Positions 61,250 to 61,435 of a stretch of DNA of 64,000 nt are shown here, piece by piece. The stretch comes from an uncultured Gammaproteobacteria bacterium (lineage in GTDB: Bacteria > Patescibacteriota > Microgenomatia > UBA8517): the NCBI GenBank assembly GCA_964431555.1, contig CAYSJW010000015.1, forward strand, positions 41,573-105,572, in the 5' to 3' direction. The translations under genes were made by a program, and so were the position numbers. The notes below the pieces were generated by a model. That model saw only the letters and a program-made list of their open reading frames with translations, was not told the origin of the DNA and did no database searches. Each line of letters begins with the position of its first letter. Within the stretch, counting starts at the first letter, position 1.

Positions 61250-61435
61250 AATTAACTCATAAAAAAACCTCCTTAGAGTTCAAGAAGGTTTGAAATAAAA
61301 AAATTCAAACCTCCTTATTTTTCAAGGAGGAGAAAATTGCAATTAATTTTGAGATATTTTTCAAAGATAAATAACCTCATAATTAAAAATTAAAAAACTA
61401 TTTGGTATTTTAAATAACTATAAGATATTTGTCAA
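61073..61435 (-). repeat. duplicated 5' expression/secretion cassette, copy 1 (promoter + leader + signal peptide to the lipobox Cys)
   Basis: Near-identical to 62930-63284 except for one ~20-bp divergent patch. Identity ends exactly after the LAAC codons. Confidence 0.8.
61407..61435 (-). promoter_or_regulatory. sigma70-like promoter TTGACA-17 bp-TAAAAT for lipoprotein paralog A (identical copy at 63256-63284 for paralog B)
   Basis: Read on the minus strand: ttgaca aatatcttatagttatt taaaat. It lies about 150 nt upstream of the start codon. Confidence 0.5.

Follow-up and report, generated by a model that had tools for sequence, protein, structure and literature searches.

Ribosome-mediated attenuators are textbook regulators, but nearly all that is known of them comes from cultivated bacteria, from their amino-acid operons and resistance genes. 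In the translational attenuation of ermC, cat and cmlA, a ribosome paused in a leader open reading frame (ORF) frees the Shine-Dalgarno (SD) sequence (PMC5499644), and polycysteine leaderless short ORFs (sORFs) of mycobacteria are proven attenuators that unmask a sequestered ribosome-binding site (RBS; bioRxiv 10.1101/834739). In S. meliloti, upstream RBSs at short distance are documented to work through coupling or occlusion (PMC13285730). Here we describe a leader of attenuator-like design 5' of two secreted lipoprotein genes in an uncultivated, AT-rich bacterium with mostly leaderless-looking, SD-less mRNAs. The stretch analysed, hereafter the window, comprises 64,000 nt (positions 41,573 to 105,572 of contig CAYSJW010000015.1, assembly GCA_964431555.1), deposited as an uncultured Gammaproteobacteria bacterium and placed by GTDB in Patescibacteriota (Microgenomatia; UBA8517). 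Its two leaders, A (61250-61412) and B (63100-63261), both lie on the minus strand, and from their predicted folds we conclude that they form a conserved, functional RNA structure that would lock the SD sequence closest to the gene (SD2). Tentatively, and with somewhat less than even confidence, we read this leader as a ribosome-operated attenuator of the ermC or trp kind that would depend on an upstream ORF (uORF) and consists of two tandem units of anti-SD, loop, SD and U-run, followed by termination-reinitiation.

A segmented leader shared by two lipoprotein genes

Leader A follows the top-scoring promoter of the 59-64 kb interval (61407-61435, minus strand; TTGACA at 61435-61430, 17 nt, TAAAAT at 61412-61407; score 11/12), from which transcription is predicted to start at about 61400, giving a leader of ca. 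150 nt up to the ATG at 61249. Four segments on the minus strand make up its core. Segment 1 is an anti-SD sequence (anti-SD1, CCUCCUU, 61324-61330) that is partnered with SD2 in the minimum free energy (MFE) structure and with SD1 in the local fold; segment 2 (61304-61316) is the "decoy" SD1 (AAGGAGG, 61316-61310) with a UUUGAA extension and without a usable start codon downstream; segment 3 (61282-61294) joins a UUCAAA extension to anti-SD2 (CCUUCUU, 61288-61282); and segment 4 (61261-61274) is SD2 (AAGGAGG, 61274-61268) followed by U7, with a probability of being unpaired below 0.01 at 37 °C. A mini-uORF (AUG AGU UAA, 61252-61260) begins at AUG1, 7 nt 3' of SD2, and stops 2 nt 5' of the main AUG (AUG2). 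The latter lies 18 nt after SD2 and opens lipoA (59417-61249), which encodes a 610-aa lipoprotein with a twin-arginine translocation (Tat) signal (TRREFLK ... LAAC). Further upstream, uORF A of 21 codons (61315-61380, MRLFIFEKYLKINCNFLLLEK*) reads anti-SD1 as CUC CUC CUU, and its UAA stop, which falls within the hairpin 1 loop, overlaps the AA of SD1.

The original prediction, made from the letters of the window, had already pointed out hairpin 1 (CCTCCTT 61330-61324, loop GAAAAAT, AAGGAGG 61316-61310), the 7-nt spacing between AAGGAGG and AUG and the Met-Ser-stop mini-ORF, all of which we find on the minus strand where it placed them. It further attributed the leader to both lipoprotein genes, and the second copy is indeed present 5' of the other gene (63179-63097). 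Its second hairpin has the proposed arms (GGTTTGAA/TTCAAACC), but the loop is TTTTTTTAT (UUUUUUUAU) and not "auuuuuuua", and the hairpin is only the top part of the 14-bp SD1:anti-SD2 helix of segments 2 and 3, the latter segment having been overlooked. The spaced motif CCTCCTT-N(3-12)-AAGGAGG occurs twice in the window and never in 100 shuffles and is thus not a chance event, and units 1 and 2 resemble tandem duplicates of the form CCUYCUUGAANNNUAAGGAGGUUU.

Leader B repeats this layout on the minus strand: promoter B (63256-63284) and uORF B (63164-63229) have the same sequences as their counterparts in A, and the core (63102-63179) comprises anti-SD1 (63179-63173), SD1 with UUUGAA (63165-63153) and UUCAAA with anti-SD2 in the form CUUCCUU (63142-63130), then SD2 (AGGAGG, 63123-63118), U7 and the mini-uORF (63110-63102). 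The G.U wobble of segment 3 sits at a different position than in leader A, with pairing retained. The gene behind it, lipoB (61993-63099, minus strand), encodes a 368-aa Tat-signal lipoprotein whose mature part is unrelated to that of lipoA, so that a module of ca. 330 nt (promoter, leader and Tat-lipoprotein signal peptide) is ca. 97% identical between two otherwise unrelated genes. The identity sets in exactly at the -35 box and extends to about codon 45 (B copy, 63284-62960).

The same contig is present in IMG metagenome 3300022548 from a Cone Pool hot-spring mat. Over 10.6 kb, the window differs from a Joint Genome Institute (JGI) assembly of the same population by two single-nucleotide polymorphisms, one 21-nt change in repeat number and one 212-nt tract (61304-61093; L001 5780-6150) in which lipoA of the JGI assembly carries a B-type leader and signal peptide. 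We take this for the conversion of one 5' module by the other, or possibly for an assembly chimera caused by the repeat. Together, the near-identical module on unrelated genes and a conversion tract that differs between assemblies would show recombination shuffling regulatory cassettes.

The predicted ground state buries the SD sequence

In both copies the MFE structure is nested, with helix 2:3 inside helix 1:4, and a weak tier of A/U pairs covers the mini-uORF and AUG2. The leaders have MFEs of -42 to -46 kcal/mol with fold z-scores of -3.9 and -4.2, they rank first and second for structure among 25 upstream regions of the window (z of -5.5 and -4.2, followed by -2.0), and folding favours their sense strand over the antisense one by 4-11 kcal/mol. 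Segment 3 of leader A can pair either with segment 2 (14 bp, -14.9 kcal/mol; -15.0 kcal/mol in B) or with SD2 (11 bp, -10.5 kcal/mol; helix 3:4 of B, -8.9 kcal/mol), while helix 1:2 amounts to -9.3 kcal/mol and hairpin 2 alone, as drawn in the original prediction, to -7.5 kcal/mol. For the core as a whole, the nested arrangement (-28.3 kcal/mol) is followed by two local hairpins (-21.0 kcal/mol), helix 2:3 only (-15.7 kcal/mol) and the combination of hairpins 1 and 2 that had been proposed as the ON state (-12.0 kcal/mol). In the window leaders, SD2 is paired with a probability above 0.99 and anti-SD1:SD2 forms with a probability of about 1, so the suggestion that CCUCCUU could alternatively pair with the true SD is borne out as the MFE structure itself rather than as a mere alternative, and the SD-sequestering fold is far from negligible on the folding check proposed with it. 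The idea of an ON/OFF switch stands as far as an SD-sequestering design is concerned, but the proposed ON state is ca. 16 kcal/mol less stable than the nested OFF state, and we rejected it as an alternative populated on its own.

Across the four two-unit leaders (A, B and the relatives L100 and L105 described below), each of the mutually exclusive pairings 1:2, 2:3, 3:4 and 1:4 can form, over 6-14 bp. When growing prefixes are folded, 1:2 appears first and is then displaced by 2:3, and 1:4 closes once SD2 has been made; the direct path from the local to the nested arrangement has a barrier of ca. 10.7 kcal/mol. Scans of Rfam at gathering and permissive settings gave no match at the gathering score, the best sub-threshold scores being at chance level (snoR145, 26.7 bits against a gathering score of 57; PyrR, 22.3 against 54). 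SD-like sequences in a 5' untranslated region far from start codons can stabilise mRNA where they are accessible to 30S subunits, as in the STAB-SD of cryIIIA in B. thuringiensis; SD1 likewise has no usable start codon but is predicted to be more than 99% paired, and a stabiliser of this type, which needs an accessible SD-like site, does not fit.

Two remote relatives retain the two-unit design

Relatives were found by an exhaustive HMMER search with lipoA, which gave 17 remote homologues, mostly lipoproteins and some with Tat signals, whose loci were fetched. Word-indexed protein searches matched only the same population, and a search with P0007 as query added only P0023. DNA pattern scans recovered no homologous leader among 85 loci on genome contigs or 12 loci on metagenome contigs; they also missed the window's own sequence and instead gave generic terminators (CCTCCTT...AAGGAGG with a T-run), palindromes resembling miniature inverted-repeat transposable elements (MITEs) and unrelated SD hairpins.

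The closest homologue, L099 (40% protein identity), has a homologous promoter (TTGACAATTATCTTATAGTATATTAAAAT) and a single hairpin (GAAACCUUCU-AAUG-AGGAGGUUUU) that starts at about +1 and is followed by 20 A/U-rich nt before the AUG. The complete two-unit design with different flanks and loops is found in L100, at 34% protein identity to lipoA, and in L105, which is 70% identical to L100 (L107 from GCA_964627195.1 and L108 are identical to L100, and L106 to L105); an unverified reading of its metagenome label would place L105 in aquifer groundwater. Both leaders run from ACCUCC over a loop to GGAGGU, A and U6-8, then from AAACCUCC over a second loop to GGAGGUUU and U6-7, after which follows AUG UUU AAG AUA UGA in L100 or ...UGG CGA GAG AAA UAA in L105. 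The homologous leaders thus keep the anti-SD/SD units, which had been named as a check on the prediction.

All four two-unit leaders favour the nested fold with a probability of at least 0.96 and have SD2 more than 99% paired. Their helices were counted manually, as RNAalifold on a MAFFT alignment misaligned the unit-1 cores and recovered just the 3:4 hairpin and a small AUG1/AUG2 hairpin. The nested arrangement (2:3 and 1:4) has 22 bp in window A, 20 in window B, 16 in L100 and 15 in L105 (plus three after a bulge), against 19, 17, 14 and 14 bp, respectively, for the local one (1:2 and 3:4), and the bases flanking the cores of L100 and L105 pair in the nested arrangement only. GGAGG is unchanged in nine of nine SD arms, every lineage retains a run of U6-8 behind either unit, and the only arm changes are three C-to-U substitutions in anti-SD arms, where G.U pairing survives only in the sense RNA. 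Palindromic DNA operators of a dimeric repressor were considered and dismissed, since the half-site spacing varies (4, 7, 8, 9 or 10 nt) and the arm changes are compatible with pairing only in sense RNA.

A putative gating uORF across the first anti-SD

The uORFs of the window, L100 (2811-2936, 41 codons) and L105 (577-675, 32 codons) share the frame in which they pass through anti-SD1, (xx)C CUC C(xx), read in the relatives as (UA)C CUC C(AG), where the stop is a UAA in loop 1; the distance from the uORF stop to GGAGG of SD1 is 0 nt in the window, 4 nt in L100 and 2 nt in L105. As in attenuators, the uORF overlaps segment 1, its stop lies between segments 1 and 2, and one of the folds sequesters SD2. 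Dinucleotide shuffles of the upstream part put the chance of such a uORF at 7-8% per leader. L100 and L105 encode the peptide MSYNFIAEKI(T/S)SSAY...NTKN...LFD..YLQ(N)* with an in-frame 30-nt indel between them, and their sole promoter-like site, TTGCAA-18-TATAAT, ends 6 nt before the uORF ATG in a leaderless layout; no convincing -10 box that would make the uORF leaderless was found in the window. CUC is the rarest Leu codon of the window (4.4% of Leu codons) and is found in anti-SD1 in all lineages, but the CCUCC motif read in this frame leaves no other codon, and only the window has a Leu run (CUC CUC CUU), the relatives carrying a single CUC at the anti-SD. ORFs initiated by AUU or UUG 3' of SD1 were discarded on inspection because their frame and end differ between the alleles A and B and between lineages.

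The effect of a ribosome on the uORF was simulated by blocking nucleotides from -13 to +11 of the P site at each codon. The probability that SD2 is unpaired is at most 0.003 in the free RNA of the window leaders, L100 and L105; with the ribosome on the last four to six sense codons it rises to 0.24-0.75 in window A/B and 0.38-0.63 in L105, and with the stop codon in the A site it falls to at most 0.002 in all of them, helix 3:4 forming in the window leaders and L105. Helix 2:3 beats 3:4 by 2.8-3.8 kcal/mol in the window leaders and by 1.0 kcal/mol in L105. An attenuator had been among the options of the original prediction, and it gains support here, but by way of the 21-codon uORF that had escaped notice.

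A mini-uORF between SD2 and the real start

The mini-uORF has 2 codons in the window, 4 in L100 and 8 in L105, so that its geometry is conserved and its peptide is not. SD2 and AUG1 are 7 nt apart in the window and in L100 and 6 nt apart in L105. In both relatives the main AUG follows 10 nt after AUG1, and the stop overlaps it in L100 (AUGA) and lies 14 nt past AUG2 in L105. The scanning-reinitiation model, reportedly from Adhin and van Duin (1990), provides a frame for such arrangements. As in minimal uORFs that permit reinitiation, the SD-AUG1 spacing is optimal, the stop is near the main AUG and the latter lacks a well-spaced SD of its own. The claim that the real start depends on termination-reinitiation thus fits an SD-proximal mini-uORF that is conserved at variable length and ends at or next to this start, and we consider it most likely, judging from this layout, that the mini-uORF feeds the real start in that way.

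Proposed mechanism and its alternatives

In the reading that we favour, the free RNA would fold into the nested helix, with SD1:anti-SD2 inside, anti-SD1:SD2 outside and a weak outer tier on the start codons, and thereby bury SD2. The opener of this lock is, according to our modelling, most likely a ribosome that translates the uORF through anti-SD1. On the last few sense codons it would strip anti-SD1 off SD2 while SD1 keeps hold of anti-SD2, leaving SD2 briefly free; at the stop beside SD1 it would unwind SD1 too, so that anti-SD2 could recapture SD2, if the cell behaves like the footprint simulation. A slower ribosome on the last sense codons of the uORF would then raise expression, with the rare CUC codons as one candidate cause. 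Going by the conserved geometry, a 30S subunit that captures SD2 would start at AUG1, 6-7 nt away, make a peptide of 2-8 residues, terminate at or near the real AUG and reinitiate there. Transcription termination may be a second target of this switch, since a run of U6-7 comes after the helix that ends in SD2.

Several observations weigh against this reading. L099 has one hairpin only, no uORF and no AUG1, and the leader is absent from the more distant homologues L101, L102 and L103. The helix cores contain no two-sided covariation, with only three independent lineages to compare. The uORF of the window has no SD and is not leaderless, being preceded by ca. 20 A/U-rich nt, its peptide cannot be aligned with those of L100 and L105, and transcription start sites and uORF translation are themselves predictions. 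Finally, the equilibrium simulation gives L100 nearly no ON window (0.03-0.09 on the last four to six sense codons) because 3:4 beats 2:3 by 1.7 kcal/mol in this leader; 2:3 is already formed in the ground state, so kinetics may still provide one. The single-hairpin variant of L099 and the weak simulation of L100 count against a universal switch.

Another possibility is a static lock, in which the hairpins damp translation and/or stabilise the mRNA, the mini-uORF delivers ribosomes, the uORF is incidental and nothing is sensed. We regard this as unlikely, with SD2 buried in every low-energy state, a single hairpin at the predicted +1 of L099 without uORF that resembles a 5' stabiliser, and a chance probability of the uORF per leader that is not negligible on its side; yet a uORF with the same frame and the same stop recurs in three lineages and is served in L100 and L105 by a conserved promoter of leaderless layout, the inner helix is GGAGG:CCUCC in all lineages where a purely structural helix could drift, and, for a gene with a consensus promoter and a perfect SD, a lock this strong (about -28 kcal/mol) would mean near silence. 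The same uORF could instead serve a transcription attenuator of the trp/leu type, in which the units are intrinsic terminators and the ribosome selects between a terminator (3:4 or 1:4, then U7) and an antiterminator (2:3). In a pattern scan, the four hairpins of leaders A and B indeed look like intrinsic terminators (a G+C-rich stem-loop with a U-tract), as does the hairpin nearest the gene in L099, L100 and L105, the 59-64 kb interval contains 7 terminator-like sites against 2.7 expected (four of them leader hairpins), U6-8 follows both units in all lineages, and CCTCCTT...AAGGAGG with a T-run is a common form of terminator elsewhere. We nonetheless think such an attenuator rather improbable as the sole explanation: the L099 hairpin lies at about +1, where an antiterminator is impossible and a terminator pointless, the U-run of unit 1 sits 5-6 nt away from its stem, and terminator-like sites are not enriched elsewhere (12 against 13.5 expected at 40-59.5 kb). 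It is compatible with the ribosome-operated switch that we prefer, and both could act together.

The lack of an intrinsic low-energy ON state, a nested helix of ca. 22 bp in two tiers and the synteny of a small Cys-rich gene at all four loci speak for a switch operated in trans, by a protein (the ca. 90-aa Cys-rich neighbour being the candidate), by a small RNA that carries GGAGG or by RNase III cleavage of the nested helix to free SD2; we give this little credence, as the Cys-rich protein matches no family and the conserved uORF geometry would be left unexplained. The leader might also have no function and simply have arisen from tandem duplication and gene conversion within AT-rich intergenic DNA, in keeping with units that look like tandem duplicates and a module homogenised between the copies A and B and between assemblies, but the architecture persists at 34% protein identity with loops and flanks fully diverged, making this very improbable. 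Least credible of all is an RNA thermometer, in which heat would melt the anti-SD:SD helix. The hot-spring mat origin and the sequestration of an SD, which is the principle of thermometers, would suit it, and a thermosensor had been suggested originally; against this, SD2 is unpaired with a probability of at most 0.03 up to 65 °C in all five leaders (at least 97% paired), reaches only 0.08-0.14 at 80 °C in the window leaders, so that melting is confined to temperatures above 80 °C, and stays at or below 0.03 even at 80 °C in L100 and L105. The duplexes are perfect and GC-rich without the mismatches typical of ROSE or fourU elements, and a tRNA GC content of 53-62% gives no hint of a hyperthermophile.

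Genomic setting, encoded proteins and other hairpins

SD-like motifs are scarce in the window (at the first start of ca. 4 of 62 genes). The few SD-led genes match the canonical 16S rRNA tail over 10-12 nt, as in AAAGGAGGTGAT before 31304 (a cupin gene) and GGGAGGAGGTGA before 28427, so the anti-SD of this host is probably canonical. Many genes in the window and in related loci have a TATAAT-like -10 box 5-13 nt (often 5-8 nt) before the ATG (e.g., 35749-36360, 39304-39798, 43615-44169 and 61511), which suggests that leaderless or very short-leader mRNAs are widespread. Against this SD-poor, leaderless-looking background, a long leader that carries two perfect SDs is exceptional.

The function of lipoA and lipoB is not indicated by Pfam or NCBIfam, which gave no match beyond the Tat signal. 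The LipoA family comprises 17 cluster representatives (P0006-P0022), (Tat) lipoproteins of ca. 520-610 aa with no Pfam domain. An AlphaFold2 (AF2) model of LipoA based on a multiple sequence alignment has a predicted local distance difference test (pLDDT) score of 72.6, with ca. 90 over residues 80-340, and no significant match in the PDB, so this part may represent an undescribed fold; the single-sequence model of LipoB is poor (pLDDT 41). The interval 59417-63545 (L001 1026-7836) contains the lipoprotein genes, a 93-aa Cys-rich ORF, a 703-aa orphan and a truncated Ham1-like ORF between rplA and rplJ, breaking the usually contiguous rplKAJL cluster. The stops of the convergent lipoA and rplA overlap by 4 nt (59417-59420), and rplA itself is a long ORF (276 aa) whose product is extended at the N terminus by a Lys/Glu-rich stretch. 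Between rplK and rplA, a TAGTTGT tandem repeat of 8.3 copies (58483-58539) differs by three units (21 nt) between assemblies. A gene for a Y1 transposase of the insertion sequence (IS) type IS200/IS605 (55205-55934) follows another promoter close to consensus (TTGACA-16-TAAAAT, 55934-55907). In L107 the lipoprotein homologue likewise has rplA nearby and sits between two Y1 transposase genes of IS200 type, and 3' of a Y1 transposase gene stands a perfect hairpin (L107/L100 6017-6040), ACCCACCUCCAU...AUGGAGGUGGGU, which shares the CCUCC/GGAGG core and may be an IS200/IS605 end hairpin.

A protein of ca. 90 aa with Cys residues is encoded next to the lipoprotein gene in four lineages (window 61511-61792, plus strand; L099 229-501, minus; L107 4764-5036, plus; L105 2512-2802, plus). 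It has the motifs C..C(T/K)(A)RQ(S/A) and (V/A)ADNP..Q..C and no Pfam or NCBIfam match, and may be a functional partner or a regulator.

Among the other sequences brought up by the pattern scans are multi-copy palindromes with CCTCC/GGAGG cores (...CACCTCCTTTTTCAAAGGAGGTTTT...CCTCCTTTGAAAAAGGAGGTGGC...) in low-GC metagenome-assembled genomes labelled Rhizobium, Legionella and Alphaproteobacteria (L003, L008, L010, L011, L013, L024, L025, L036-L038, L042, L050, L055, L080, L082, L084 and L086), which resemble MITEs or repetitive extragenic palindromic elements. On the AT-rich metagenome contigs L090, L092 and L097, a hairpin CCTCCTTTA(G/T)TAAAAGGAGG followed by TTTGAATTT directly precedes the ATG of a small CxxC protein (M..KCPNCK...); it is of a single-unit SD-sequestering type in an unrelated context. 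Loci from many Cohnella genomes (L002, L005, L012, L014 and others) share a conserved CCTCCTTGCG...CGCAAGGAGG hairpin with a T-run ca. 25 nt 5' of the SD of a gene starting ...VIMDE, which is probably the terminator of a leader or riboswitch.

Comparison with known systems

Beyond the attenuator itself, one may picture a portable cassette of promoter, uORF-gated double anti-SD/SD switch, mini-uORF and Tat-lipoprotein signal that gene conversion carries from one surface-lipoprotein gene to another, unrelated one in an uncultivated lineage poor in SDs and largely leaderless, and in which a single ribosome position senses translation speed or Leu-tRNA status for both termination and translation. 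In this full form the idea is doubtful; if true, the cassette would be a cis-regulatory RNA so far absent from Rfam, and leaderless-sORF attenuation would have a second, independent example outside actinobacteria. The more modest attenuator reading would already describe a switch built solely from SD copies and their complement, layered from a gating uORF, a decoy SD and a reinitiation uORF of 2-8 codons. If confirmed, it would offer a compact and easily mutated model for the control of leadered, SD-dependent genes where leaderless translation dominates, as well as a new cis-regulatory RNA motif and a handle on the timing of orphan surface proteins.

ROSE and fourU thermometers resemble the leader in that an SD pairs with an upstream pyrimidine stretch, but the helix here is perfect and far too stable, with predicted melting above 80 °C. 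With upstream RBSs and minimal uORFs it has in common a strong SD at optimal distance from an upstream AUG and a tiny ORF that ends within a few nt of the main AUG or overlaps it, though the upstream RBS is locked in a helix and the uORF varies from 2 over 4 to 8 codons without a conserved peptide. The attenuators of trp, leu and his likewise have a leader stop between segments 1 and 2, a 3:4 hairpin followed by a U-run, the 2:3 alternative and, in the window, rare Leu codons in segment 1; in contrast to them, the putative terminator stem is the SD itself, directly 5' of the start codons, and the single-hairpin variant of L099 makes an antiterminator impossible.

Like ermC, cat and cmlA, the leader has four segments with alternative pairings, the regulated SD in segment 4 and a short leader ORF over segment 1. 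It differs from them in that the segments are copies of SD and anti-SD, that the ground state is nested (1:4 and 2:3) instead of 1:2 and 3:4, and that no SD precedes the leader ORF, which is of leaderless layout in the relatives and stands behind a short A/U-rich stretch in the window; the leader also has no identifiable antibiotic or arrest motif, serves lipoproteins rather than resistance genes and adds a mini-uORF between SD and start. The mycobacterial attenuators differ in turn by their single-amino-acid run, to which only the Leu triplet of the window compares, by targets in amino-acid metabolism and by a duplex other than an anti-SD:SD decoy. They share with this leader, as proposed here, the arrangement of a leaderless sORF as first cistron, on which a stalled ribosome blocks the duplex that sequesters the downstream RBS, and by this analogy the leaderless polycysteine sORF attenuators of mycobacteria are its nearest proven relatives.

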